A stretch of DNA of 64,000 nucleotides from assembly GCA_036130055.1 (NCBI GenBank), contig JAYYOR010000027.1, positions 121,532 to 185,531 on the forward strand. The letters are read 5' to 3'. The stretch's first letter is position 1. Every line of letters starts with the position of its first letter. Source of the stretch: Pseudomonadota bacterium (GTDB lineage Bacteria > Pseudomonadota > Gammaproteobacteria > Ga0077536). The position numbers and the translations under genes are program-made. Under the pieces are notes generated by a model, which saw only the letters and a list, made by a program, of their open reading frames with translations, ran no database searches and was not told the origin of the DNA. This document shows positions 7,630 to 59,781 of this stretch, in pieces.

Positions 7630-9167
<1,538 letters not shown>

Positions 9168-9189
9168 TCTTTCTAATTAAACAATTTTC

Positions 9190-9801
9190 TTAAGAGTTAC
9201 CAAACTTTTCGTTCTTTTCTTTCAACGATATGATTAATTGGTCAAGTCCTTGTGTTTCAATAATAGATTTAAATGACCCGCGGTAAGTTTTTACCAAACT
9301 CACACCACTAACTGACACATCAAATGCTAACCATCGGCCCTTACTATTATGAAGTCTATAAACTATAGATACTGCTTCACCCTGCGGATTAATCCTTTGA
9401 ACTATTTTAGCGGTCTTTCCTTTTTGTATATTCTCGTCCAATGGGTAATCAATTGTTTGGTTGGAGAATTCTAATAATGCAGAAGCATATGTCCTTACAA
9501 GTAGTTTCCTAAACTCATCAATAAATTCACCTTTTTGTTTTACGGCCGCTTTTTCCCAGTAAGCACCTAGCACAAATCTAGACATAACGGCAAAGTCAAA
9601 GTGAGGGAAGACTAAGTCCGAAACCAAATTATACATTTCACCCGGGTTATCCTTTAGCTTATCTTTATCCGACTCTATCTTACTGAGCACTTTATCGGTT
9701 GTTGATTGAATGATGCCCAGGGGCTCTAAAGACTCAGAAAATGAATGCGAGGAATTCAATGCGAATAGGACAATAGCAATCTTTAGTAAAAGTCTAATCA
9801 T
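9190..9801 (-). CDS. mlaC: Periplasmic phospholipid-binding protein MlaC (Ttg2D family)
   Basis: 203 aa with a signal peptide and a Tgt2/MlaC-like sequence. It is not preceded by mlaFED in this window. Confidence 0.7.
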   Translation of the reverse strand: MIRLLLKIAIVLFALNSSHSFSESLEPLGIIQSTTDKVLSKIESDKDKLKDNPGEMYNLVSDLVFPHFDFAVMSRFVLGAYWEKAAVKQKGEFIDEFRKLLVRTYASALLEFSNQTIDYPLDENIQKGKTAKIVQRINPQGEAVSIVYRLHNSKGRWLAFDVSVSGVSLVKTYRGSFKSIIETQGLDQLIISLKEKNEKFGNS

Positions 9802-15029: not shown

Positions 15030-15365
15030 TCATTGTTTAATTGTTCCCTTAGGCACGACCTGCGCTATTGCCTGACGTTGAACCTTGACTTCTACATCTT
15101 TTGAAATCTCGATTTTCAGGAAACTGTCTTCCAGCACTTTTATCTTACCCAACAACCCACCATTTGTTACAACCTCATCCTCGATTTTTAGAGCATTAAT
15201 CATTTTAGTATGTTCTTTTTGTCGTTTCATTTGCGGCCTAATCAAAAAGATATAGAAAACAACAAATAATAAAATAAGGGGTATAAACTGTCCTATCCCC
15301 GGCGATTGACTCTCTGAAGCTGTTTGTGCGTATGCATTCGCTATTATAAAATCCATGTAACTCAA
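15030..15365 (-). CDS. yajC: Preprotein translocase subunit YajC
   Basis: 111 aa with a single transmembrane segment and the conserved 'LKKGDEVVT.GG..G' equivalent (EDEVVTNGGLLGKI). Confidence 0.85.
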   Translation of the reverse strand: MSYMDFIIANAYAQTASESQSPGIGQFIPLILLFVVFYIFLIRPQMKRQKEHTKMINALKIEDEVVTNGGLLGKIKVLEDSFLKIEISKDVEVKVQRQAIAQVVPKGTIKQ

Positions 15366-15411
15366 GCCTTCTTATAATTTTTGTAAATAGTTTACCACAG
15401 TCTAAAAATTA

Positions 15412-16512
<1,101 letters not shown>

Positions 16513-30506: not shown

Positions 30507-31844
30507 ATGGCGATTTTCAAAAACACAAAATATGCAATTATTGGAGCGGGTATTCACGGATTAAGCACCGCTTATCATCTAGCAGTTGAACTGAAAAAAA
30601 ACGGTAAAGGAAGCGGCGAAGACATTCTTGTAATAGACAAGGGAGGAATAGGAGCAGGGGCCTCAGGGATAGCCTGCGGCGTTGTAAGAAACAACTACTA
30701 TCAGCCTGCTATGAGAGAGCTTATGGCACAGTGCGTTGAAGTATGGGAGAGTGATCCCGAAGCCTTTAGTTATCACCCGGTCGGCTATATGCAAATATCA
30801 CCCGTGTGTATGAGAGAAGATGTGAACTCTATATTCGAACAACAAAGAGCGATAGGTTATGAATCAGAATTTATCGAAGGAACAGGTGATTCATCTGAGT
30901 ATATGAAATCAATTTTCTCAGATTGGCGAGCACAAGGCATAACATCTGTTCTTCATGAAAAACGGGGAGGATACGCAAATAACAGTAAATCTGTCTACGG
31001 TTTAGCAAAAAAAGCGGAAAATGAAGGTGTAAAAATTCTAACCGGAGTGACAGTAACAGGATTCCAATTCGACAACCAGTCAGACGCAGTCAAAGCCCTT
31101 GAGACAGATAAAGGTCTAATTAACTGCGAATATTTGATAGTTGGAGCCGGGCCTTGGATAAAATCAATCTGGGAATACTTGGAGCTTCCTAAAACGGTAA
31201 AGTTCACTGGCAAAGACGGAAAACAAAAAGAGGTCCCTATGTGGATTTACTGGTCGTTGCAAGAGGGAACTTTAGGCGTGGATCCAAATATGTTGAAAAC
31301 GGATTCCGGAGACAAACCGCCCGTCATCCACGTTGACTCTGATGCCCCTCTTGTCGGTGAAGAAGGTGAGACGATCACGGAAAAACTTTGGGGTATTTAC
31401 TACAAACCTGACTTTCACTTCAATGGAATTCAAGGAGGGTCTGCTCCATTTATAGTTCAATCTGAACCTGATTCAGTAAATGTAGATCCATACGGACCGG
31501 CGTCCCCAGACTTTGTAGTAGGCCCCGATTTCGCTTACTCTTGGTGCAGTGCTCTATCTCACTGTCAAAAAAGGTTTGAAGGAATGTCAGGTTTATTTAA
31601 AAAAGAACCCTCTGGTGGAATTGGTGCTTTCAGCCCGGATAGTTTCCCCATATTTGATGAATTTAGGCAGAACTGTTACATAATTGCAGATTCAAACCAT
31701 GGCTACAAAATGCTCGGAGTGGGTAAGCTTGTAGCGGAAAAACTCATGGGTGAGCCTTCTTCTCTTCTGCAGCCTTTTAGATTTTCTCGATATGAGGAAA
31801 AAGAATCCCATCCCACTTCTAATAGCCCTTTTCCATGGAGCTAA
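30507..31844 (+). CDS. FAD-dependent oxidoreductase (DAO/sarcosine-oxidase-beta-like superfamily)
   Basis: 445 aa with an N-terminal Rossmann 'YAIIGAGIHGLSTAYHLA' and an AAGGAG RBS 7 nt upstream. It is a paralogue of the soxB/mgdA-like gene at 36992 and sits directly upstream of the gmaS-like gene. Confidence 0.6.
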   Translation: MAIFKNTKYAIIGAGIHGLSTAYHLAVELKKNGKGSGEDILVIDKGGIGAGASGIACGVVRNNYYQPAMRELMAQCVEVWESDPEAFSYHPVGYMQISPVCMREDVNSIFEQQRAIGYESEFIEGTGDSSEYMKSIFSDWRAQGITSVLHEKRGGYANNSKSVYGLAKKAENEGVKILTGVTVTGFQFDNQSDAVKALETDKGLINCEYLIVGAGPWIKSIWEYLELPKTVKFTGKDGKQKEVPMWIYWSLQEGTLGVDPNMLKTDSGDKPPVIHVDSDAPLVGEEGETITEKLWGIYYKPDFHFNGIQGGSAPFIVQSEPDSVNVDPYGPASPDFVVGPDFAYSWCSALSHCQKRFEGMSGLFKKEPSGGIGAFSPDSFPIFDEFRQNCYIIADSNHGYKMLGVGKLVAEKLMGEPSSLLQPFRFSRYEEKESHPTSNSPFPWS

Positions 31845-31909: not shown

Positions 31910-33382
31910 GTGAGTGAAACTGACCTTGAAATATATGTGGCGGACAAGCAAAGAGCTGAACTAGTAAAAAAAGTTAGAAGTAAAATTAATGAACTTAATA
32001 TTCAGTATATTTATTACCAATTTATTTCTGTTACTGGAAGGATTGTGGGGAAAGGAATCCCAGCTGATCATTGGGAAAGAACTGCCACTAAAGGATTTCA
32101 ACTAGTTTACGGTTCAACCGCAAATTTATTTATTGACAGGCACGACCAATACATTGGCTACGGACCGGAAGCAATGGAGCTAGTAGGTATCCCAGACCCT
32201 GATACCTTCTGCCAACTCCCATGGGATAAAAGGGTAGCAAGAGTTTACTGCGTTTGCTTCAGAAACCGCGAGGAACGAGAAAATCCAGGAGCGTTTTTAA
32301 CCTCCGATTGTAGAGGTAATTTAAAGCGGGCTCATTCCGATTTTAAAGAAAAATACGGAATGGAGTTAAGGGCTGGAACAGAACCTGAGATGATGTGGCT
32401 AAAGCGAGGTGAAGATGGGAAACCTAATGGTGGAGTAACCGAGCCTTACTGTTATCACATTGACCAATTTGAAAGCCTTAGACCAGTCTTTATGAAAGTT
32501 ATCGAGTACGGACAGGCAATGGGACTCGACATGATTCAAGGTGACCATGAGGATGCTCCCGGTCAACTTGAGCTAAATTGGACTTTCGATGATGTGGTGA
32601 GAAATGCAGACAGGTTATCCACTTACCGACAGATTTGCGCTCAAGTTGCTCGAGAAAATAACCTCATCGCTTGTTTCATGTCTAAACCGTTTATGGGCGT
32701 ATCTGCATCAGGCTGCCATACCAATATCTCGCTTTGGAAAGGTGGAAAGAACTCAATTAACAAGCTCCATCAAAATATTTTACCAGGAATGGATGGGGTA
32801 TTTACTTATCGCGAGGGAGGCGAGAATTTGTTTATGCCAGATACTGATGATCCCCAGTTACCTGGAAAGGTTGGGCTGCAATGCGTGGGAGGAATCGTAA
32901 AACATCTCGGGGCACTAACAGCAATTGGTTGCTCTACGGTAAATTCTTACAGAAGATTATGGGATACAGGTTTCTGGGCGCCCGTTTTCGCAGACTGGGG
33001 ATTTCAGAACCGTACAACTGGGCTTAGAGTCTCCGCGCCAGGAAGATTCGAGTACAGAGCAGTTGACTCGATGGTAAACCCATATCTTCTAGGTTCGGCT
33101 CTATTAAGTGCATTCGAGGATGGAATCGACAATGACATTGATCCAGGTGAACCGGAAAATCGAAATATTTATGAGGCTATGGAGGCCGGGAAACAAGTTA
33201 AACGGTTGCCCATGTCTCTCGGCGAAGCTCTTCAAAGACTCGAGGACGACGAAGTGATCAAAGCATCAATGCCAGGAGATATGTATAAGATCTACAAATG
33301 GTACAAGAATGATGAACACGAAAAATTCATGGCTACGGTAACGGACTGGGACCAAGAAATGTACATGGATTGTCTTCCATAA
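31910..33382 (+). CDS. gmaS: Glutamine-synthetase-family protein (candidate gamma-glutamylmethylamide synthetase)
   Basis: 490-aa glutamine-synthetase catalytic-domain protein that is not a type I GlnA. The gmaS assignment rests on its position directly upstream of mgsABC-like genes. Confidence 0.6.
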   Translation: MSETDLEIYVADKQRAELVKKVRSKINELNIQYIYYQFISVTGRIVGKGIPADHWERTATKGFQLVYGSTANLFIDRHDQYIGYGPEAMELVGIPDPDTFCQLPWDKRVARVYCVCFRNREERENPGAFLTSDCRGNLKRAHSDFKEKYGMELRAGTEPEMMWLKRGEDGKPNGGVTEPYCYHIDQFESLRPVFMKVIEYGQAMGLDMIQGDHEDAPGQLELNWTFDDVVRNADRLSTYRQICAQVARENNLIACFMSKPFMGVSASGCHTNISLWKGGKNSINKLHQNILPGMDGVFTYREGGENLFMPDTDDPQLPGKVGLQCVGGIVKHLGALTAIGCSTVNSYRRLWDTGFWAPVFADWGFQNRTTGLRVSAPGRFEYRAVDSMVNPYLLGSALLSAFEDGIDNDIDPGEPENRNIYEAMEAGKQVKRLPMSLGEALQRLEDDEVIKASMPGDMYKIYKWYKNDEHEKFMATVTDWDQEMYMDCLP

Positions 33383-33403: not shown

Positions 33404-34348
33404 ATGTGTGGAATAGCGGGGGTAATTCATAGAAATGGCAACTCAAAAATAGGGGAAGAAATGTCCTCTATGCTTCAGGCAATGAAGCACAGAGGGCCAG
33501 ACTCAACGGGATTTGCACTTTATTGCGAACGAAACGAGGGGCATCCGGATCAGTATGTTATGCGTATGAAGGTTGCGGAGAGCCACGAAACTGCTAAAGG
33601 TTATGATATTCATGCGAAAATGGAAGAGCGAATAAAAAATGTGGAACTCCGCCTCAAGGAACTTAATGTCAAAGTGTTAGAAGCCGAAAAGATTACCGAT
33701 TACGCATTACGTTATACCTTCAACTGTGACGGGAATCTTCGACAGTTAGCCAACTACGTTGAAGATGTAGAAGGGGTCGAAATACTCTCTATTGGGAAAG
33801 GGTTAGAACTAGTGAAAGATTTAGGAGATGCAACAGTGGTATCGGATCTTTACTCCTTAAATTCTTTCAATGGAACTCACGCGATTGGCCATACCCGCAT
33901 GGCCACTGAATCAGATGTCGATATAAGGTCGGCCCACCCCTATTGGGCCTATCCTTTCGCTGACGTATCCGTCGTTCATAATGGACAATTGACCAATTAC
34001 TGGTCAAAAAGACGTGAATTGGAGAGAAAAGGGCATAGATTTATGTCTAGTTGCGATTCAGAACTTATTGCAGTTTATATCGCTGACAAAATTGAACAAG
34101 GAAAAAACCTAGAAGACTCCATGCGGCAAAGCGTCGACGAGTTAGACGGCGTTTTTACATACTTACTAGCAACATCAGATTCTTTGGGGATGGCTAAAGA
34201 TACGATGGCTGCAAAACCAATGGTCCTTTTTGAAAGTGACGACATAGTTGCCCTAGCTTCTGAGGAAGTCGCCATTAGAACCATCATGAATAACGAAATT
34301 GACACATCAGACCCATATGACGGAGAGGTAAGAGTATGGCAGGCCTAG
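33404..34348 (+). CDS. mgsA: Class II (Ntn) glutamine amidotransferase domain protein (N-methylglutamate synthase subunit A candidate)
   Basis: 314 aa beginning MCGIAG (catalytic Cys right after Met), matching the GltB N-terminal domain. Confidence 0.7.
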   Translation: MCGIAGVIHRNGNSKIGEEMSSMLQAMKHRGPDSTGFALYCERNEGHPDQYVMRMKVAESHETAKGYDIHAKMEERIKNVELRLKELNVKVLEAEKITDYALRYTFNCDGNLRQLANYVEDVEGVEILSIGKGLELVKDLGDATVVSDLYSLNSFNGTHAIGHTRMATESDVDIRSAHPYWAYPFADVSVVHNGQLTNYWSKRRELERKGHRFMSSCDSELIAVYIADKIEQGKNLEDSMRQSVDELDGVFTYLLATSDSLGMAKDTMAAKPMVLFESDDIVALASEEVAIRTIMNNEIDTSDPYDGEVRVWQA

Positions 34349-35184
34349 AAAAATCAAAGGAACCTCTGAAAACAGAGATGAGAACCGAGTCACTGCTCGG
34401 GAGAACCCAGCAAGTCTTTTTTTCACTTGATAACAATGAAGAAAAGATGTCCCAACCATTTACTTATGAAGTGGATTTTTCAAAATCAGCGGAGATTGAT
34501 GCGGAAAACCTAAACACAAGACAAATTAATAGCAAAATAAAACACCTTCTGACACAGGGACATGGAAGTATCACAATTAAAAACCCTGGGGCTAAGCATA
34601 GTATCGGAGTTGGAATATTAAATAGATTAAATTTGAGAATTGAAGGAAGTCTGGGATATTTTGGGCTAGGTTTACTTGACGGGCCAAACGTCACTGTTGA
34701 GGGAAGAGTTGGTTGGTCTTGCGGAGAAAATATGATGTCTGGAACTGTGCTTATTAAAAAAAACGCTGGTTCGACTTTCGGCGCCGCAATTAGAGGGGGC
34801 GACTTAGTATGTCGAGGTGATGTTGGGGCTAGGACTGGTATCGACCAAAAAGGCGGAACCATTATCGCAGGTGGAAGCACAGGTGCTTTCTCAGGATTTA
34901 TGATGCAGCGGGGAAGAATGGTTATACTCGGAGACGCCGGAAATAACTTAGGGGACTCAATGTACGATGGTACAATTTATGTCGGTGGAACAATCAAAAG
35001 CTTAGGAGCTGATGCGGTGGAAGCCGAAGTTACAACGGCAGACGAAAAATGGTTGCTTGAAAAACTAACCCTTTATGGATTAGCAGATAGGCTCGATTTA
35101 CCAACAATGAAGAAAGTGGTCTCTGGCAAACAACTATGGAATTACGATAGTCTTGAACCAAGCGAAAAAAAGCTTGTTCTATAA
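34336..35184 (+). CDS. mgsB: GXGXG-motif protein (glutamate synthase C-terminal domain homologue; N-methylglutamate synthase subunit B candidate)
   Basis: 282 aa with repeated G-x-G-x-G beta-helix motifs (GSITIKNPGAKHSIGVG..GDLVCRGDVGARTG...). Confidence 0.7.
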   Translation: MAGLEKSKEPLKTEMRTESLLGRTQQVFFSLDNNEEKMSQPFTYEVDFSKSAEIDAENLNTRQINSKIKHLLTQGHGSITIKNPGAKHSIGVGILNRLNLRIEGSLGYFGLGLLDGPNVTVEGRVGWSCGENMMSGTVLIKKNAGSTFGAAIRGGDLVCRGDVGARTGIDQKGGTIIAGGSTGAFSGFMMQRGRMVILGDAGNNLGDSMYDGTIYVGGTIKSLGADAVEAEVTTADEKWLLEKLTLYGLADRLDLPTMKKVVSGKQLWNYDSLEPSEKKLVL

Positions 35185-35204: not shown

Positions 35205-36542
35205 ATGGCCGACGATAAGGAAAAATATTTATTAGGAAAAAGTCCTATCTTTACCCCAGATGTCGTGAACGACATTCATATCAAGTCTGAACTCGGCAGA
35301 TATCGTATGCGTGGCTTCTCGATGTTTAAAAAAGTGCCGGGATGGGATCAATTAACCTTCATGCCCGGAACATTAACAAGATTTGTAATAGAGGGGTACA
35401 GAGAGAAATGCGAAACTAAAACAATCATTGGTCCGAGAGCAAAACGTCCTATTGAATTAGATATACCTGTATACATCACCGGCATGAGTTTTGGAGCATT
35501 ATCCTTTGAGGCCAAAACCGCGCTAGCAAGGGGCGCAACGATGGCAGGTACAGCAACTTGTTCTGGAGAAGGGGGAATGATCCCAGACGAAAGACGCTTT
35601 TCCGAGAAATGGTTCTACCAGTGTATACAATCGAGATATGGCTTCAATCCTCAACATCTAAGATTGGCCGACGGTTGCGAATTTTTTATTGGACAAGGAG
35701 CAAAAGTTGGCCTAGGAGGCCACTTGATGGGTCAAAAAGTTACGGACCAAGTGGCAGAAATGCGTTCGCTTCCCGCAGGAATAGATCAAAGATCGCCTGC
35801 CAGGCATCCAGATTGGTTGGGGCCTGACGACCTGGCACTAAAAATCGAGGAAATAAGAGAGGCAACTAATTGGGAGATTCCTATTCAACTAAAACTGGGA
35901 GCTGCTAGGGTCTATGACGATGTTCGAATGGCAGCAAAAACCGATCCAGATTCGATATATATAGACGGTATGGAAGGTGGTACAGCAGCCGGACCACATC
36001 TTGCTTCTGAAGAAACAGGAGTTCCAGGAATTGCCGCTATTCGGCAAGCTAGGAGAGCTTTAGATGACGTCGGGAAAAGTGGGGAGATAACTCTAGTGTA
36101 CGCTGGGGGGATCAGGAATGGCGGAGACATTGCCAAAGCCCTAGCACTGGGCGCAGACGCTATTGCTATCGGTCACGCGTCAATGATGGCTTTAAACTGT
36201 AATAAAGACATCCCGGAAGCAAATTATGAGGAAGAAATGGGAGTTAAAGCCGGAAACTGTTACCATTGCCATACAGGTAGGTGTCCAGTTGGAATTGCTA
36301 CCCAAGACCCCAAATTGAGAGAAAGACTTGACCCAGATAAGGCTGCAGAAAGAGTCTATAATTTCCTGCATACACTAGCCATTGAGTGCCAAATGATGGC
36401 TCGGGCGTGCGGAAAAACGAACATACACTCCTTAGAACCTGAGGACTCAGCGGCACTTACGATGGAGGCGTCAGCAATGGCTCAAGTTCCGCTGGCTGGG
36501 ACGCAAGTTACAGTGGGAAGACCAGATTTAAACCGATTCTGA
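35205..36542 (+). CDS. mgsC: FMN-dependent glutamate-synthase-domain protein (N-methylglutamate synthase subunit C candidate)
   Basis: 445 aa matching the GltB FMN/Fe-S central domain, including the conserved C-terminal Cys cluster CYHCHTGRCPVGIATQD. Confidence 0.75.
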   Translation: MADDKEKYLLGKSPIFTPDVVNDIHIKSELGRYRMRGFSMFKKVPGWDQLTFMPGTLTRFVIEGYREKCETKTIIGPRAKRPIELDIPVYITGMSFGALSFEAKTALARGATMAGTATCSGEGGMIPDERRFSEKWFYQCIQSRYGFNPQHLRLADGCEFFIGQGAKVGLGGHLMGQKVTDQVAEMRSLPAGIDQRSPARHPDWLGPDDLALKIEEIREATNWEIPIQLKLGAARVYDDVRMAAKTDPDSIYIDGMEGGTAAGPHLASEETGVPGIAAIRQARRALDDVGKSGEITLVYAGGIRNGGDIAKALALGADAIAIGHASMMALNCNKDIPEANYEEEMGVKAGNCYHCHTGRCPVGIATQDPKLRERLDPDKAAERVYNFLHTLAIECQMMARACGKTNIHSLEPEDSAALTMEASAMAQVPLAGTQVTVGRPDLNRF

Positions 36543-36561: not shown

Positions 36562-36966
36562 ATGGAGAACGTAATGAGTGAAAAAAAAGATATTGACCAC
36601 TACCTAAAATCAGATGGTGTCGACTCTGAGCGAGAGAAAATGATCGGTCAAACAATCGGGTATCGTTATGATGTGAACTTGTTGCCAGACCTCTCAAAGC
36701 TAACACCATTCTTGAAAAAATATCTAGACTTCATGGGTTGGAAAGACTTGAACTGGTTAGAAGACATCCACATGGGGTATGAAGAAGGGCGTGCAGCGGT
36801 CTTTGACCGAAATATTAACGGATGGGTGACTGTTCCACCCGACCTAAAGCTGCCAGATAATCAACAAGAAAGAGATATGATTGCAAGAGAACTACTAGTA
36901 AAATTTCAAATGTCTGATAATCACCCTCTAGTAGCACTTAGAACAGCATATGGAAAATTCGACTAA
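36562..36966 (+). CDS. Hypothetical protein (134 aa) embedded between the mgsC-like and soxB/mgdA-like genes
   Basis: ORF on the same strand with tight spacing. I recognise no motif in it. Confidence 0.4.
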   Translation: MENVMSEKKDIDHYLKSDGVDSEREKMIGQTIGYRYDVNLLPDLSKLTPFLKKYLDFMGWKDLNWLEDIHMGYEEGRAAVFDRNINGWVTVPPDLKLPDNQQERDMIARELLVKFQMSDNHPLVALRTAYGKFD

Positions 36967-36991: not shown

Positions 36992-38233
36992 ATGTCTATT
37001 AGATTATTAAAGTACGGGTTCATTGATAACCACGCGGAAGAGCGTTGGTTCAACCCAGCAAAAGAACTTCAAGATTCATACGACGTTGTTATAATCGGAG
37101 CGGGAGGTCATGGCTTAGCTTGTGCTTATTATCTTTCTCATTACCATGACGTTAGAAAAGTTGCTGTTTTAGAAAAAAATTATATAGGCGCCGGCAACAC
37201 TGGTAGAAACACAACCATCATTAGATCAAATTATCTGACAGAGGAAGGAGTTAAATTCTACGGTGAGAGTGTTCGTCTTTTTAACCAACTGTCAGAAGAA
37301 TTAGAAACTAATATTTTTTTCTCAGAAAGAGGACACTTTACTCTTGCGCACAGTGACGCTACTTTAAGGACTGCAAGATGGCGGGCAGAAGTTAACAAAC
37401 ACTACGGAATAGAAAGTAGCGTTGTCGGGCCATCCGAGGTTAAAACAGCTTGCCCGGAAATCGACCTGAGTTGTGGGGGCAACCATCCTATTGAAGGAGC
37501 ACTTTTTCATGCTCCAGGGGCAGTTGCGAGACATGACGCAGTAGCTTGGGGGTATGCAAAGAAAGCTTGCCAACAAGGAGTAGAAATCCACCAGCACACC
37601 GAGGTTGAAGGGATTAATATCGAAAACAATAAAATTACTTCAGTCCAAACCAATAGAGGCTTAATCAAGACCGATACCGTTCTTTCTGCTGTCGCAGGAG
37701 CTACCCCGACTATACTAAATATGGTCGGCCTCGATTCCCCAATCGATATTTATCCTCTTCAGGCTTGCGTGACTGAACCTATGAAACCATGGTTAGACAC
37801 TATAATCGTTTCTGGTAGCCTTCATATCTATGTAAGTCAAAGCTCGAGAGGTGAATTAGTTATGGGTGCTTCAGTAGATCCGGTCGAACAACATAACACC
37901 AAATCCAGTTTTGAATTTGTATCTGGTATGTGCGATCAAATTCTGGACTTGTTCCCCTTCTTAAGCACCGTAAAAATAAATAGGCAATGGGCAGGCATGG
38001 CGGACATGACACCAGATTTTGCTCCTATTATGGGCACGACTCCAGTCGATGGTTTTTTTCTTGATTCGGGCTGGGGTACCTGGGGGTTTAAAGCGACGCC
38101 TGTTAGCGGTAAATCTTTGGATAATTCAACCGATAAAAATAAAAACGACCCTCTTATTAGCGGCTTTAATCTTAGCAGATTTAAGGACTTTAAACTCGTA
38201 GGTGAAAAAGGAGCCGCGTCCGTAGGACATTAG
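36992..38233 (+). CDS. soxB: Sarcosine oxidase beta-subunit family protein (N-methylglutamate dehydrogenase subunit A candidate)
   Basis: 413 aa. 'DVVIIGAGGHGLACAYYL...GNTGRNTTIIRSNYL' is nearly identical in pattern to heterotetrameric SoxB. Confidence 0.85.
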   Translation: MSIRLLKYGFIDNHAEERWFNPAKELQDSYDVVIIGAGGHGLACAYYLSHYHDVRKVAVLEKNYIGAGNTGRNTTIIRSNYLTEEGVKFYGESVRLFNQLSEELETNIFFSERGHFTLAHSDATLRTARWRAEVNKHYGIESSVVGPSEVKTACPEIDLSCGGNHPIEGALFHAPGAVARHDAVAWGYAKKACQQGVEIHQHTEVEGINIENNKITSVQTNRGLIKTDTVLSAVAGATPTILNMVGLDSPIDIYPLQACVTEPMKPWLDTIIVSGSLHIYVSQSSRGELVMGASVDPVEQHNTKSSFEFVSGMCDQILDLFPFLSTVKINRQWAGMADMTPDFAPIMGTTPVDGFFLDSGWGTWGFKATPVSGKSLDNSTDKNKNDPLISGFNLSRFKDFKLVGEKGAASVGH

Positions 38234-38243
38234 TATATTAAAA

Positions 38244-38480
38244 ATGAAATACTTAGACTGTCCAATTATAGGGGAAAGACCCATTTCTGAATTTATTTAT
38301 GGGGGCTCGATAGACCCAGAACCATCTAACTTTGATGGTTCTGCAGGATGGTGGGCTTATCATCAAGATAGCCGACCACTCACGCGGAAAGAGTGGTGGT
38401 ACCATCAACCTACCCAGACGTGGTTCAGAGTTAAGCGAGATACAGAAGCTAATATCATTCTCTCAATCGAGGAAAATTGA
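38244..38480 (+). CDS. soxD: Sarcosine oxidase delta-subunit family protein
   Basis: 78 aa with a SoxD-like N-terminus 'MKYLDCPIIGERPISEFIYGG'. It overlaps the soxA start. Confidence 0.8.
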   Translation: MKYLDCPIIGERPISEFIYGGSIDPEPSNFDGSAGWWAYHQDSRPLTRKEWWYHQPTQTWFRVKRDTEANIILSIEEN

Positions 38481-41332
38481 TGGCTAGACGACTACCCCAT
38501 AAAAGTTCCGAATGGATAGACCGTTCCAATAGAATAAAATTCAGATTCGAAAACAAAGAAATAATGGCTTTTAAAGGCGATTCTATAACCAGCGCTTTGA
38601 TTGCTAATGGGGAAAAAATACTTGGAAGAAGTTTCAAATACCATAGACCAAGAGGATTTGTTTCACTGGCTAATCATGACGCAAACGTCATGCTTCAATC
38701 GGAAGATAGCACTAATATTAGAGCCGACGTGACGTTAGCAAAAAACAGCCAAGGAGATTTAAGATCAATCAACACTTTTGGTGGAGTCAGACATGATTTA
38801 ACCAAAATACTTGGGCTGTTCGCGCCTGTATTACCCGTTGGTTTTTATTATAAAGCTTTTTTTAAACCTGCTTTTTTGTGGCCATATTGGGAAAAACTTA
38901 TCAGAAAACTAGCTGGACTTGGAGAGGTTAAACCCAGTTACGACAAAAAGAGATATCCATCACAAACACTGTTTTGCGATATCCTAATCATCGGGGGCGG
39001 TGCTGCGGGGACGGCAGCAGCTGCTCACTTTTCTAAAAGTAATTTCAAAGTAATTATGGCTGATGAAAATTTTAAATTAGGCGGCTCCTCGAGTTTTGAC
39101 GCAGAAGAGGCGCTAAAAGATATCGAGTCTAATATTGAACAACTCAATACACCGAATATCACTTGCCTAACTCAGCACTTTGCTAGTGGATATTACGATG
39201 ATAAAACGGTGATTTTAGAAGGGCCTAAAGGTTGTAAACAAGTGTGTGCAAAAGCAATCATTTTAGCTTCAGGGGCGTATGAGCAACCTGCTGTCTTCAG
39301 AAACAATGACTTACCATGTGTAGTTTTGGGTTCATCCGTAGCCAGACTCGCTCACAGATACTCAATTGATCCTTTTGAAAAATCAATAGCGTTAGTTGGA
39401 AACAACATCGGTTTTCGACGTCTTCTCAAGCTAAAATCTATCGGTATAAATATAGGATGTATTTTACAACTATCGGGCTTTGAGACAAAAGAGTCAACAA
39501 GAAAACAAGCAGAATCAATGGGAATTGAGGTAGTAAACGAGGTAATTCCGATTGAAGCGATTTCAAAAGGTGAATGCTTAAGCTCATTTGTTTATCGCAC
39601 CGTTAATGATCCATCCTCCAAAGTGATTGACTGCGATGGCTTAATTATGAGCGTAGGATGGTCTCCTGCTTCGAACCTACTAGTACAGGCAGGTGGAAAA
39701 CTAAAGTATGTTGAGGAAATTAACCAATTAGTCCCCGATAAACTACCAAGTGGAGTGTTTGTTGCAGGTATGATACGCGGAATCTATGATTTGGAAAAAA
39801 GAGTTCGTGATGGCAAACAAGCTGCAGAAGCTTGTGAAGCCTATTTAGAAAAAAGAAATGCTCCAAACGCGATTCAGGAGGACTACGAAAACCAAAGTCA
39901 CCCGTATCCTATTTATTCTCATCCCAAGGGAAATGAGTTTGTTGACCTGGACGAGGACTTAAAACTAAAAGATCTGGTAACTGGAATGAAAGAGGGGTTT
40001 GATTCAATCGAGCTACTCAAAAGATACAGCACGATTGGAATGGGACCAAGCCAAGGGAAGATTTCAAACCTGAATGGAATCAGAATCGTCGCAGACTTTA
40101 ATAATCTCCCGGTGGGAAATATAGGTACTGTAACTCCAAGACCTTTTGTCTATCCAGTACCTATTGGAAAACTGGCAGGCAGACGAATTCGGAGAGAAAG
40201 AAGAACAAGCCTTGATCAATTTCATACAGAAAAGTTGGCTGATATAAAAGAAAATGGAATATGGAGACGTCCTATGGCGTATGGTGGCTTTGCCTCCAGA
40301 GAAAATATCGCGAGGGAGTATTCTGTAGTAAGAAATGCAGTAGGTATTATTGATGTGTCTACCCTGGGTAAAATAGAGCTATTGGGACCTGACGCTAGAA
40401 ATCTTTTAGAGTACGCATACACTTGCAAATTCGACAAGTTAAAAGTAGGAATGACTCGGTATATTTTTATGGTTGACGCCGGAGGAACGCTTGTTGATGA
40501 CGGGGTCGCGGCCAAACTTGGTGAGGACCATTTTTACATTACTGCAACCAGTAGCCATTCGCAGACAGTGCTAAGACTACTTGAACTATTCAAGATGCAG
40601 CTGCAGCTCGATGTGACCATTTGGGATCATACTGGTCAAGTTGGTGCTATCAACCTTGCGGGACCTTCCTCAAAAAAAGTTCTCACGGATGTGGTTGATA
40701 TTCCACTAGATGCTGATAGTTTTCCCTATCTGGGCTATCGAGAAGCAGAGGTTTGTGGAATTACCTCGAGAATTATGCGGGTAGGTTTTGTGGGAGAGTT
40801 GGGCTACGAAATACATATGCCTACAAACAGTCTGATTAAGGTTTGGAATGGTCTGCTTGACGTAGGCTCAAGCAGACAAATTATGCCTTTTGGAGTAGAG
40901 GCACAAAGATTACTTCGTTTAGAGAAAGGGCATTTAATTTTTGGCCAAGATACTGACGGCAACACTAACCCTTTTGAGGTAAATCTTGGATGGGGCGTCA
41001 ACCTTAAAAAAGAACGATTTTATGGCCGGAATAGCTTAAAAGTTCTCAAACAAAACATTACTAGAAAATTAGTCGGTTTCGAAATGGATGACTTGAGAGG
41101 ACTAGAAATCAAAGAGAATAACCTTACTATAGACCAAAACACGATAACAGGTAGAGTTACAAGTATAAATTTCAGCCCGACACTAAAAAAAATAATTGGT
41201 CTAGCAATGATAGACGCTCCCTACCTAGAAAAAGATTCAATCCATATTAGACTTGATGATGGATCAAGTTTAGAAGCTCTGATTGTTCCTGCTAGCTTCT
41301 ATGATCCAGAAAATGAAAGGCAGAAAATATGA
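38477..41332 (+). CDS. soxA: Sarcosine oxidase alpha-subunit family protein
   Basis: 951 aa with an NAD/FAD Rossmann motif (IIGGGAAGTAAA) and a C-terminal aminomethyltransferase (GcvT-like) folate-binding domain. Confidence 0.85.
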   Translation: MMARRLPHKSSEWIDRSNRIKFRFENKEIMAFKGDSITSALIANGEKILGRSFKYHRPRGFVSLANHDANVMLQSEDSTNIRADVTLAKNSQGDLRSINTFGGVRHDLTKILGLFAPVLPVGFYYKAFFKPAFLWPYWEKLIRKLAGLGEVKPSYDKKRYPSQTLFCDILIIGGGAAGTAAAAHFSKSNFKVIMADENFKLGGSSSFDAEEALKDIESNIEQLNTPNITCLTQHFASGYYDDKTVILEGPKGCKQVCAKAIILASGAYEQPAVFRNNDLPCVVLGSSVARLAHRYSIDPFEKSIALVGNNIGFRRLLKLKSIGINIGCILQLSGFETKESTRKQAESMGIEVVNEVIPIEAISKGECLSSFVYRTVNDPSSKVIDCDGLIMSVGWSPASNLLVQAGGKLKYVEEINQLVPDKLPSGVFVAGMIRGIYDLEKRVRDGKQAAEACEAYLEKRNAPNAIQEDYENQSHPYPIYSHPKGNEFVDLDEDLKLKDLVTGMKEGFDSIELLKRYSTIGMGPSQGKISNLNGIRIVADFNNLPVGNIGTVTPRPFVYPVPIGKLAGRRIRRERRTSLDQFHTEKLADIKENGIWRRPMAYGGFASRENIAREYSVVRNAVGIIDVSTLGKIELLGPDARNLLEYAYTCKFDKLKVGMTRYIFMVDAGGTLVDDGVAAKLGEDHFYITATSSHSQTVLRLLELFKMQLQLDVTIWDHTGQVGAINLAGPSSKKVLTDVVDIPLDADSFPYLGYREAEVCGITSRIMRVGFVGELGYEIHMPTNSLIKVWNGLLDVGSSRQIMPFGVEAQRLLRLEKGHLIFGQDTDGNTNPFEVNLGWGVNLKKERFYGRNSLKVLKQNITRKLVGFEMDDLRGLEIKENNLTIDQNTITGRVTSINFSPTLKKIIGLAMIDAPYLEKDSIHIRLDDGSSLEALIVPASFYDPENERQKI

Positions 41333-41988
41333 ACGAAGTCGCAAATAGCAATAGTCCTCTGCAAGCTTTTTTTGACGAATCAATAAGCGAAATAAAAATA
41401 TTTCAATCTTGTGAAGTCAGCGCACTAAAAAAACCGATCAAGGCCAAAGAAGATGATAGTTACATATTTGATTTATCGTGCATAAAAAAATTTGCTGTAG
41501 TTGGTAAAGAAGCTCGAATCGTTGTTGAAAAATACTTCGAGATTAGTCCTATTAACTTATTTCAATGGACCTCTGTTGGTAGTGGTGGATTAATTTGTTT
41601 GGCTAAGGATAAGATTGTCTTGGTTAATTCATATGACGGCTCCCTGATCGATGGCTTTACAAACGCTATCCCATCGGACCCAAAAAAGCATATCGTACAA
41701 AGAGCAGATTATAGTGAAATTGCACTTTCGGGACCCCTAGCATCAGTAATTTTAGAAGAACTCGTACCAGTTCCTAGTTCAGCTTGGTCTCAGACGGGCC
41801 TTTTATGCAGCTCATTAGCCGGCGCCAATGTTATTTTGCGTAAAGTAAATAATCAGCCCAATCACTTGCGATGTATAATTCAGCCAGCTGACACCCATTA
41901 TGTCTTAAAAGCAATGATGGAAATAAACCGCGAGTTGAATGGTCACCTCGGCTGCATATTCAGCTATCTAAATACATTCCAACCTTAA
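41329..41988 (+). CDS. soxG: Sarcosine oxidase gamma-subunit family protein
   Basis: 219 aa. It overlaps the soxA stop, and its size and position fit SoxG. Confidence 0.65.
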   Translation: MNEVANSNSPLQAFFDESISEIKIFQSCEVSALKKPIKAKEDDSYIFDLSCIKKFAVVGKEARIVVEKYFEISPINLFQWTSVGSGGLICLAKDKIVLVNSYDGSLIDGFTNAIPSDPKKHIVQRADYSEIALSGPLASVILEELVPVPSSAWSQTGLLCSSLAGANVILRKVNNQPNHLRCIIQPADTHYVLKAMMEINRELNGHLGCIFSYLNTFQP

Positions 41989-58230: not shown

Positions 58231-58420
58231 TGTTTTCGTCTGAACCGAGTTCTTTACGGATATTTTCATAATCATGGTTTTCCAGCTGGCCGATTTTAAA
58301 ATGCCAATATAACCAATAAATTACGACAAATATCAGCCAAATAAATTCAGTTCCCAAGAGTGGGTATATTTCGAAAACTTCACTAAAATTTAATTTATTC
58401 CAATCAACAATAGTTGCCAT
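58217..58420 (-). CDS. Small membrane protein downstream of amt
   Basis: 67 aa with one hydrophobic helix. Its start overlaps the amt stop (same strand), suggesting translational coupling. Confidence 0.3.
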   Translation of the reverse strand: MATIVDWNKLNFSEVFEIYPLLGTEFIWLIFVVIYWLYWHFKIGQLENHDYENIRKELGSDENIKNQ

Positions 58421-59781
58421 TATTTTATCTCTTCCGTTTCAGCCAAAGATACGTTTTTATTTTCCATGCTGGTCTTTTTTTCTGAAGCAAAATCCAGTCC
58501 CACAACTTCAATTTCTGGTGGTATACGTAGAATTTTAAAAAAATTAAGTAATTTCGCAAGTGCCCATCCTGGTAAGAACCCAAAAAAACCAAACATTATT
58601 ATTGCGCCTACAAACATCCCTAGAGGATTAATCGTGCTGGGGTAATAAGCTGAGGCCGGATAACCCCATAAAACAAAACCGCATACTATGAGACCCAAAG
58701 CACCAGCATAACCATGAACTGCTACCGCTCCAACCGCATCATCGATTTTAAATTTTTTCTCAACATAAAAATGTAATCTGTAAACAAAATAAACACCTAC
58801 GGCCCCAATCGAGAATGCTTGAAGTGGGCTATATAAATCGTTTCCAGCAGAGGCTAAAATTATACCAGCAAGTCCCCCTGAGTAAGTCCAAAATGGGTCT
58901 CCTTTTGACACTAAATAACTTGTCAACATTCCACCTGATAGTGACATTAAAAAATTAGCCGTAATACCACTTAAAGTGGTTGGAGTGAGATATATGTTTG
59001 TTGCAGAAAAAAACTTCTGCCCATCTCCATAATCACTGCCAATATCATAAATTGGAACATTACACGCAGCGTAAAACCCCCAAAATCCGGTATAAATCAA
59101 AAAAATACCTATAGTTACAAGCCACGGATTTTGCGGATTAATTGTGTTTATTTTCCCATCTCTGAATTTCCCTATTCTTGGCCCCAACACTGCCAGGACA
59201 CCTAGAGCAAAACCTCCCGAAGCCGCATGAATTACACCCGAGGCATAAGCATCATGATATCCAAGTTTATTAACCATCCAACCTGCGTAGTGCCAGCCCC
59301 AAGAAGCATCAATTACCCAGACAACAGAACCAATTACCACAGCGATAATTGCAAATGCCACAGTTTTAATCCTTTCAATTATAGCCCCAGAAACTATTGA
59401 AGCGGCTGTCCATGAGAATAATAAAAAAGCTGCCCAAAATACCAAATTTATTCTGTCACCTAAATTGACTGCCATAGCAGATGACCAAGGAAGGGCTAAC
59501 TCGTTAGCACCGAAGCCATCCGCTTCCAGCACCAATCCTCCGGTTATTCCCGGTCCATTTGGCATAGCCCAATAAAACCACCAACCAAAAAGGAAAAAAC
59601 TTATTGTTACAATTGGAATTAAAATTGTATTTTTCATAAGAGTATGAAGATGGTTTTTCCGCCTGGATACTCCTACCTCATAGACGCAAAAACCAACATG
59701 AATAAGAAACATCAAGACGACCGTTACCCAGTAATAGAATTCCGTAAAAATCGTCGTCAATGCCAATATTTCTTTTTCCAT
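58420..59781 (-). CDS. amt: Ammonium transporter (Amt family)
   Basis: 453 aa with 'VGFCVYEVGVSRRKNHLHTLMKNTIL', the Amt signature (FA.LE.G.VRSKN..N.LMKN), and 11-12 transmembrane segments. Confidence 0.85.
   Translation of the reverse strand: MEKEILALTTIFTEFYYWVTVVLMFLIHVGFCVYEVGVSRRKNHLHTLMKNTILIPIVTISFFLFGWWFYWAMPNGPGITGGLVLEADGFGANELALPWSSAMAVNLGDRINLVFWAAFLLFSWTAASIVSGAIIERIKTVAFAIIAVVIGSVVWVIDASWGWHYAGWMVNKLGYHDAYASGVIHAASGGFALGVLAVLGPRIGKFRDGKINTINPQNPWLVTIGIFLIYTGFWGFYAACNVPIYDIGSDYGDGQKFFSATNIYLTPTTLSGITANFLMSLSGGMLTSYLVSKGDPFWTYSGGLAGIILASAGNDLYSPLQAFSIGAVGVYFVYRLHFYVEKKFKIDDAVGAVAVHGYAGALGLIVCGFVLWGYPASAYYPSTINPLGMFVGAIIMFGFFGFLPGWALAKLLNFFKILRIPPEIEVVGLDFASEKKTSMENKNVSLAETEEIK

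Follow-up and report, generated by a model that had tools for sequence, protein, structure and literature searches.

The window analysed here is the whole stretch of 64,000 nucleotides (nt) taken from contig JAYYOR010000027.1 of a gammaproteobacterial genome assembly (GCA_036130055.1). It contains a run of genes related to gmaS, mgsABC and soxBDAG, and within this run lies a small uncharacterised gene, here called ORF130, which is the subject of this study. ORF130 is located between a gene for a Glu_synthase/FMN-domain protein (MgsC') and a soxB-like gene, on one strand throughout, with spacers of 19 nt before and 25 nt after it. Neither spacer contains a promoter-like or terminator-like site on the plus strand, an arrangement that is compatible with the co-transcription proposed in an earlier note on this DNA. 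The longest frame in the open reading frame (ORF) listing is initiated by ATG and encodes 134 amino acids (aa; 36562..36966, plus strand), and the earlier note described the gene in this form. Its place, strand and spacing stand, but its start probably lies downstream: almost all homologues are 130 aa long and begin at the second methionine, and a Shine-Dalgarno-like GGAG is found 6 nt 5' of the ATG at 36574, whereas inspection of the sequence revealed no comparable motif ahead of the ATG at 36562. The coding sequence (CDS) therefore most likely begins at 36574 rather than at 36562 (Table 1).

The predicted product is a soluble protein of 15.3 kDa with an isoelectric point of 5.2 and no Cys. 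It contains no transmembrane segment or hydrophobic stretch (maximum Kyte-Doolittle value of a 19-residue window, 0.35) and no recognisable cofactor-binding motif. Searches of Pfam-A 2025 and NCBIfam 20.0 with the window protein gave no match at E ≤ 0.1, and none was obtained from the same databases even at E ≤ 10 across 51 members of the family. A sequence search of the PDB likewise returned no significant match, and the SoxD family (PF04267) matches a neighbouring 78-aa gene but not ORF130. These results agree with the earlier observation that the protein has neither a transmembrane segment nor a motif that can be placed. All family members are named "hypothetical protein" in their sources. 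An Rfam scan of the window identified two tRNAs only.

ORF130 is a real gene under extreme selection, with a constraint comparable to that of a chaperonin. This became apparent from comparison of the window with two syntenic loci, L004 and L006, the latter from Methylococcaceae bacterium TMED69, which is also the nearest named genome to the window. The ORF130 proteins are 96–97% identical at a DNA identity of about 80%, corresponding to a proportion of non-synonymous differences (pN) of 0.023 and of synonymous differences (pS) of 0.83–0.91, at which the synonymous differences are saturated. For comparison, pN in the same genome pair is 0.014–0.016 for GroEL, 0.14 for TrpE, 0.18–0.20 for GshA and 0.23–0.25 for the soxG-like (MgdD) gene. 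When 152 sequences were compared, spanning Alpha- and Gammaproteobacteria as well as a few other phyla, 64 of the 130 columns reached an identity of at least 98%. The invariant positions include two His alongside numerous Asp, Glu, Arg, Asn and Gln residues (H66, H117, D58, E63, D64, D78, R79, R100 and D101 are among the polar ones). The contrast between pN and pS rules out a chance or antisense ORF and is the decisive argument for a real gene; the probability of 134 stop-free codons at the window's stop-triplet frequency (about 4 × 10−4) is secondary to it. The adjacent MgsC' is even tighter than GroEL in the same pair (protein 99% identical, DNA 79–81% identical, pN 0.007–0.008). Its identity of 82–91% between Alpha- and Gammaproteobacteria points to extreme constraint, to a recent spread of the module by horizontal transfer, or to both. 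A marine metagenome contig (L086, MDSZ01218708.1) encodes an MgsC' protein identical to that of the window, and over ORF130 it shows zero non-synonymous differences from the window at a pS of 0.013. The window thus derives from an organism sampled in that metagenome or from a very close relative of one.

The family is widespread, and the lineage-specific addition that the earlier note had considered does not fit its distribution. When a single genome was scanned for each GTDB species, homologues were detected in at least 587 species. A word-indexed search yielded 7,735 clusters (90% identity), and the top 120 of these are 78–99% identical to the ORF130 of the window. Carriers within the Gammaproteobacteria include members of the Arenicellales, Granulosicoccaceae, Acidiferrobacteraceae, Thiotrichaceae, Pseudomonadales and Oceanospirillaceae, those within the Alphaproteobacteria members of the Dongiaceae, Kiloniellales, Rhodospirillaceae and Rhodobacterales, and further copies are found in single metagenome-assembled genomes (MAGs) of Acidobacteria and Latescibacterota. 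Virgifigura deserti SYSU D60014 (L060) is a carrier in culture. An exhaustive phmmer search over 1.84 billion representatives of clusters at 50% identity returned 281 entries. On inspection they all proved to belong to a single tight family, as fragments, copies with a wrong start or read-throughs across frameshifts, and no distant relative was among them. The most divergent representatives (P0188, P0168 and P0250) are located on low-coverage contigs of 0.5–1.7 kb and are uninformative on context. No homologue was found in a plasmid collection. In one locus (L039), ORF130 is present twice (8945–9334 and 15037–15426), on either side of an inserted liv-type ABC transporter and a gene with a CBS domain. 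Residues that are otherwise invariant are altered in the second copy, e.g., D101G, and the insertion itself seems to have given rise to the duplication.

The linkage of ORF130 to the four genes upstream of it, GS490, MgsA', MgsB' and MgsC', is absolute. Two sets of loci were compared: 80 ORF130-anchored genome loci, searched by tblastn with the ten cluster proteins of the window, and a reciprocal set of 80 MgsC'-anchored metagenome loci, of which 79 have room downstream. Wherever a locus of the first set includes upstream DNA, the four genes are found directly 5' of ORF130 and in that order, with MgsA' and MgsB' syntenic wherever the locus reaches far enough upstream. Conversely, ORF130 is the next gene after MgsC' in 79/79 of the MgsC'-anchored loci, most commonly after a gap of 11–14 nt. 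The order of separate class-II glutamine amidotransferase (GATase), GXGXG and FMN Glu_synthase proteins is kept in all loci, and MgsC' is 82–91% identical across the genome loci, including between Alpha- and Gammaproteobacteria. In two loci a toxin-antitoxin-like pair of DUF4160 and DUF2442 proteins is inserted between MgsC' and ORF130 (L169, 9483–9935; L170, 9332–9934), and ORF130 is retained. The genomes of these two loci measure 4–5.6 Mb, and the loci themselves have a CN_hydrolase gene after ORF130 and two Amt genes and a GntR regulator upstream.

All other neighbours are variable. DAO445, a FAD-dependent oxidoreductase of the DAO family, is found beside the module in about 40% of loci (35/80 MgsC'-anchored metagenome loci, with a comparable proportion among the genome loci). 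The soxBDAG-like genes lie within 10 kb of ORF130 in only about 18/80 genome loci, a soxA-like gene is nearby in 11/80 metagenome loci, and the sox genes near ORF130 are of two types, with either 56–72% or about 40% identity to the soxB of the window. Frequent but inconstant companions are Amt, a divergent GntR/FCD regulator, the trimethylamine N-oxide (TMAO) demethylase Tdm (DUF1989 + GCV_T), Tmm (FMO), a TmoX-type ABC transporter, FolD and Fhs. The module is often located in catabolic islands for TMAO and trimethylamine (TMA), while in some genomes Amt and a GntR regulator are its only company. ORF130 is often followed by B3_4, Amt, CN_hydrolase or a family designated 'c6' instead of soxB. 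From the constancy of the upstream linkage and the variability of DAO445, soxBDAG, Amt, Tdm and the remaining neighbours, it follows that ORF130 belongs with GS490, MgsA', MgsB' and MgsC' and not with the mgd-like genes, and that its partner should be sought among these four. The place inside an mgs/mgd cluster that the earlier note had assigned to ORF130 is thus confirmed across genomes for the mgs-like genes and contradicted for the mgd-like ones; homologues are not scattered and unlinked to mgs genes, as they might have been, but accompany mgs-like genes throughout.

Two of the alternative neighbours deserve brief description. In some Gammaproteobacteria (L001, 10421–11131; L011) a stand-alone protein with a B3/4 domain (PF03483), which is the domain of the PheRS beta subunit, is encoded between ORF130 and the soxB-like gene. 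'c6' is an uncharacterised family of about 200 aa that has no Pfam match, is absent from the window and occurs 83 times among 161 loci (including L013, L018, L027, L046, L059 and L064), mostly 9–250 nt downstream of ORF130 on the opposite strand, i.e., convergent with it. In L029 it follows a canonical gmaS instead of ORF130.

The genes of the window cluster are listed in Table 1. By their domain matches the soxBDAG-like genes (36992..41988) encode a putative heterotetrameric N-methyl-amino-acid oxidase or dehydrogenase of the Mgd/Sox type, which is an optional downstream neighbour of the module. The longest soxA-like ORF has a TTG start and shares its first 4 nt with the end of the soxD-like gene; further overlaps exist between MgsA' and MgsB' (13 nt) and between the soxA- and soxG-like genes (4 nt). 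These gene overlaps along the operon are compatible with translational coupling throughout. The window contains no copy of canonical gmaS/mgsABC, Tdm or Tmm, and of this set only Amt is present, at a distance of about 21 kb from the module.

Table 1 ORF130 and associated features of the window, in order of position
Feature	Position	Strand	Basis
DAO445, FAD-dependent DAO-family oxidoreductase; frequent, inconstant upstream companion	30507..31844	+	PF01266
GS490, 490-aa glutamine-synthetase-family ligase	31910..33382	+	TIGR03105 score 295.7, below cut-off
MgsA', class-II GATase subunit	33404..34348	+	PF13537, PF13522
MgsB', GXGXG (beta-helix) subunit	34336..35184	+	PF01493
MgsC', FMN/Glu_synthase-domain subunit	35205..36542	+	PF01645, 298 bits
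GGAG, Shine-Dalgarno-like, 6 nt 5' of the ATG at 36574	36564..36567	+	Read from the sequence
ORF130, uncharacterised protein; probable true CDS (130 aa + stop)	36574..36966	+	Homologue starts, pN/pS, column conservation
soxB-like gene	36992..38233	+	TIGR01373, PF04267 and TIGR01372 matches across the sox genes
soxD-like gene	38244..38480	+	As for the sox set
soxA-like gene	38477..41332	+	As for the sox set
soxG-like gene	41329..41988	+	As for the sox set
Amt transporter	58420..59781	-	62% identical to the Amt directly after ORF130 in many other loci

The earlier note placed ORF130 inside an mgs/mgd cluster. The four upstream genes are not the canonical gmaS/mgsABC but paralogues of them, and several loci carry both sets. 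Second sets in the canonical order mgsA-mgsB-mgsC-gmaS were identified in L021, L026, L029, L043, L046, L051, L081 and L129. They are 29–53% identical to the proteins of the window (about 51% between MgsC' and canonical MgsC), and sets that coexist in the same loci at such low identity are paralogues rather than orthologues. Six canonical-type MgsC copies were found; the four with enough downstream DNA are all followed by gmaS, and ORF130 follows none of these four. This agrees with the earlier statement that canonical mgsABC-gmaS sets have no such member and with the published description of the SAR11 cluster glxBCD-glnT, which contains no further gene (PMC3160333). This work on SAR11 C1 metabolism and a 2026 paper on TmaR deal with canonical genes only, and our literature search found no description of the module, of ORF130, of gmaS paralogues or of an alternative pathway for dimethylamine (DMA).

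The ligase provides the clearest separation between the two sets. GS490 scores 295.7 against the GmaS model TIGR03105, for which the cut-off is 469.6, and it is about 45–70 aa longer than canonical GmaS. It aligns with 163 bits to the solved GmaS of Rhodovulum (7cql), with 177 bits to 9qur and with 190 bits to true glutamine synthetase, while the second-set ligase of L029, a true GmaS, reaches 605 bits to 7cql. The amine-pocket and catalytic residues listed for this enzyme, RhGmaS, in its structure paper (PMC7948447), namely K30', Y147, Q175, D177, E179, E186, N188 and R312, are all kept in 41/41 GS490 sequences, and the flap residue is Trp, not Glu. In contrast, two residues of the RhGmaS ATP site differ in 41/41 sequences (Y174 to Ile and H237 to Asn). 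These features identify GS490 as a putative GmaS-like amine ligase of a clade separate from canonical GmaS. Judged by sequence, GS490, MgsA', MgsB' and MgsC' thus constitute a distinct "type-2" GmaS/Mgs-like paralogue set with ORF130 as its hallmark fifth gene.

Structure prediction with AlphaFold2 gave models of ORF130 with a mean predicted local distance difference test (pLDDT) score of 68.7 from 51 sequences and 74.3 from 87 sequences. The core (residues 31–130) is modelled as an alpha+beta domain with block pLDDT values of 77–93 (blocks 41–130 in the confident part), in which strands 28–34, 65–70, 73–78 and 83–86 accompany helices 45–54, 97–113 and 118–129. A fold search found no known relative of this domain. 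Residues 1–29 have a pLDDT below 50, yet residues 20–36 (REKxIGQxIGYRYDVN) are almost invariant despite the low-confidence start; a conserved N-terminus of low pLDDT is a pattern typical for segments that may become ordered only on a partner. Alignment of the ORF130 profile by hhalign against GS490, MgsA', MgsB', MgsC', DAO445, SoxG, GntR, FolD and c6 gave probabilities below 1% throughout (0.1% for SoxG). Derivation of ORF130 from the central domain of GltB as a remnant was also considered and rejected, with no support from sequence or fold. Across 100 loci, pairwise-distance matrices of ORF130 correlated with those of MgsA' (r = 0.66), MgsB' (0.65), MgsC' (0.58) and GS490 (0.49), which is weak evidence because the compared pairs are not independent.

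Taken together, ORF130 is the obligate, strongly constrained fifth gene of the module, tightly spaced behind MgsC' and independent of any variable neighbour. We lean towards its product being a stoichiometric small subunit; that it physically binds the enzyme, which protein it binds and what the enzyme acts on are what we infer here. By analogy to the N-methylglutamate (NMG) pathway, GS490 would ligate a small amine to glutamate at the expense of ATP, and the assembly of MgsA', MgsB' and MgsC' would hydrolyse the resulting gamma-glutamyl amide and re-attach the amine to a 2-oxoglutarate/glutamate skeleton. A flavin oxidase, i.e., DAO445 and/or the soxBDAG-like enzyme, could then strip the alkyl group from the N-alkyl-glutamate. 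Translation of ORF130 would be coupled to that of MgsC', and the protein would dock onto the MgsA'B'C' assembly, upon which its residues 20–36 may become ordered. Several observations weigh against a subunit. Canonical MgsABC works without such a protein, and a subunit is therefore not mechanistically required. The invariant polar residues could be explained equally well by an interface or by a site for catalysis or ligand binding, the covariation of rates is slight and drawn from non-independent pairs, and nearly all family members derive from MAGs. Furthermore, no genuine fusion of ORF130 to another protein was encountered in 150 family representatives; the sole apparent case, P0230, proved to be an error-laden read-through of MgsC'.

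A subunit or an assembly factor, the kind of explanation given in the earlier note, is still the best available. As a transient assembly or maturation factor, ORF130 would remain outside the mature enzyme and would serve the insertion of flavin or of an Fe-S cluster into MgsC' or the oligomerisation of MgsA'B'C'. The absolute linkage to the module would suit such a role, as would the position directly after the cofactor-bearing MgsC', in which a C-x2-C-x4-C motif is invariant. However, conservation at the level of a core enzyme (pN of 0.023, half of the columns invariant across classes) would be unusually high for a chaperone, at least one canonical MgsC copy has the same Cys motif yet needs no such factor, and ORF130 itself has no Cys and no recognisable cofactor-binding motif. 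We therefore consider an assembly factor unlikely, although it is the best placed of the alternatives to a subunit.

Somewhat less likely still is a small regulator that would switch GS490 or the synthase according to nitrogen status. Small proteins are known to inactivate the glutamine synthetase of cyanobacteria, and ORF130 would be a functional analogue of these. It is small, acidic and soluble, its N-terminus, conserved yet modelled with low confidence, might serve as a docking peptide, and the Amt and GntR/FCD regulator genes that often flank the module point to a context of nitrogen scavenging. However, regulators of this type are usually transcribed separately, which lets their level vary, unlike ORF130, which follows MgsC' by 11–14 nt in most loci. 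Moreover, the distances of ORF130 track those of MgsA' and MgsB' more than those of GS490, and no similarity to a known regulator family was found in Pfam, NCBIfam or the fold search.

The dense set of invariant polar residues, two His among them, could also belong to a small enzyme or a ligand- or metal-binding protein that would perform an extra step of the type-2 pathway, e.g., on an imine/iminium or a released aldehyde, and a fold without known relative leaves room for a new catalytic scaffold. We regard this as doubtful and place it behind the regulator, given that the known chemistry of the NMG type has no missing step, that the coupling to MgsC' resembles the arrangement of a subunit, and that Pfam and NCBIfam revealed no similarity to RidA, Fae or like small enzymes. 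Finally, a role as accessory of the downstream soxBDAG-type (Mgd-like) dehydrogenase, which the position 25 nt upstream of the soxB-like gene in the window and likewise upstream of it in close relatives might suggest, is highly improbable in view of the rarity of soxBDAG-like genes of two types near ORF130, the different genes that often follow it instead and the negative hhalign result against SoxG.

Whichever part ORF130 plays in it, the module raises the question of substrate. Together with DAO445 and/or a Sox-type oxidase it could constitute an undescribed route for a methylated amine other than monomethylamine, for which DMA, the product of Tdm, would be the best candidate, and ORF130 might then adapt the GOGAT-like synthase to the new substrate. 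We hold this route to be a long way from likely. In its favour, the module is found divergently oriented beside tdm, or beside canonical gmaS-mgsABC, in many loci, and no dmm-like family is among its recurrent neighbours. The DMA monooxygenase dmmDABC is missing from many marine bacteria, a "DMA bottleneck" pointed out by Lidbury et al. 2017 (PMC5520151). On the other hand, GS490 keeps the monomethylamine pocket of GmaS unchanged, and the genomes that have only Amt and a GntR regulator beside the module also argue against a route for DMA.

ORF130 is the conserved marker of a widespread and previously unrecognised paralogue of gmaS/mgsABC, and probably an extra subunit of it. In metagenomic surveys, counts of gmaS, mgs and mgd genes are used to gauge the turnover of methylated-amine nitrogen and carbon by marine and soil bacteria, and a second GmaS/Mgs-like set that is both widespread and extremely conserved is easily mistaken for the canonical pathway. 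ORF130, an uncharacterised family with no known fold, offers a clean marker for this type-2 set. If the module handles DMA or another amine, it bears on how bacteria without dmmDABC treat the DMA released by TMAO demethylase; if it is confined to monomethylamine, a GOGAT-like enzyme with an additional obligate subunit would still represent new enzymology.

Several known systems invite comparison with the module. Like ORF130, SoxD/MgdB and SoxG/MgdD are small, cofactor-poor proteins encoded in operons of N-methyl-amino-acid enzymes, and they exist only as parts of a complex. ORF130 differs from them in having no Pfam SoxD match and an hhalign probability below 1% against SoxG, in not being linked to sox genes, and in being far more conserved than MgdB/MgdD. 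With GltB and the split, archaeal-type GOGAT, the module shares the amidotransferase (MgsA'), FMN (MgsC') and C-terminal beta-helix (MgsB') domains. MgsC' matches residues ~860–1165 of GltB, and its Cys-rich motif is located at the position at which GltB binds a 3Fe-4S cluster. In contrast to these enzymes, the module contains neither the central domain nor an electron-donor subunit of the GltD type, and ORF130 resembles none of the GltB domains in sequence or fold.

The closest relative is the canonical gmaS-mgsABC/mgdABCD system of Methyloversatilis universalis and Ruegeria pomeroyi and its SAR11 counterpart glxBCD-glnT. It has the same three Mgs domain types, the amine-pocket and catalytic residues of its ligase GmaS are all kept in GS490, and canonical clusters and the module share the company of Tdm, Tmm, a TmoX-type ABC transporter, FolD, Fhs, Amt and soxBDAG-like genes. 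However, the order of genes is ligase-A'-B'-C'-ORF130 in the module and A-B-C-ligase in the canonical clusters (PMC3160333), which are without ORF130, the fifth gene of the module. GS490 matches true glutamine synthetase at least as closely as it matches solved GmaS, and conservation is far higher in the module than in the canonical set, as the identity of MgsC' across bacterial classes illustrates. Overall, the module would work like the NMG pathway but stands apart from its canonical members in the clade of its ligase, its coexistence with canonical paralogues, its gene order and its extra gene.

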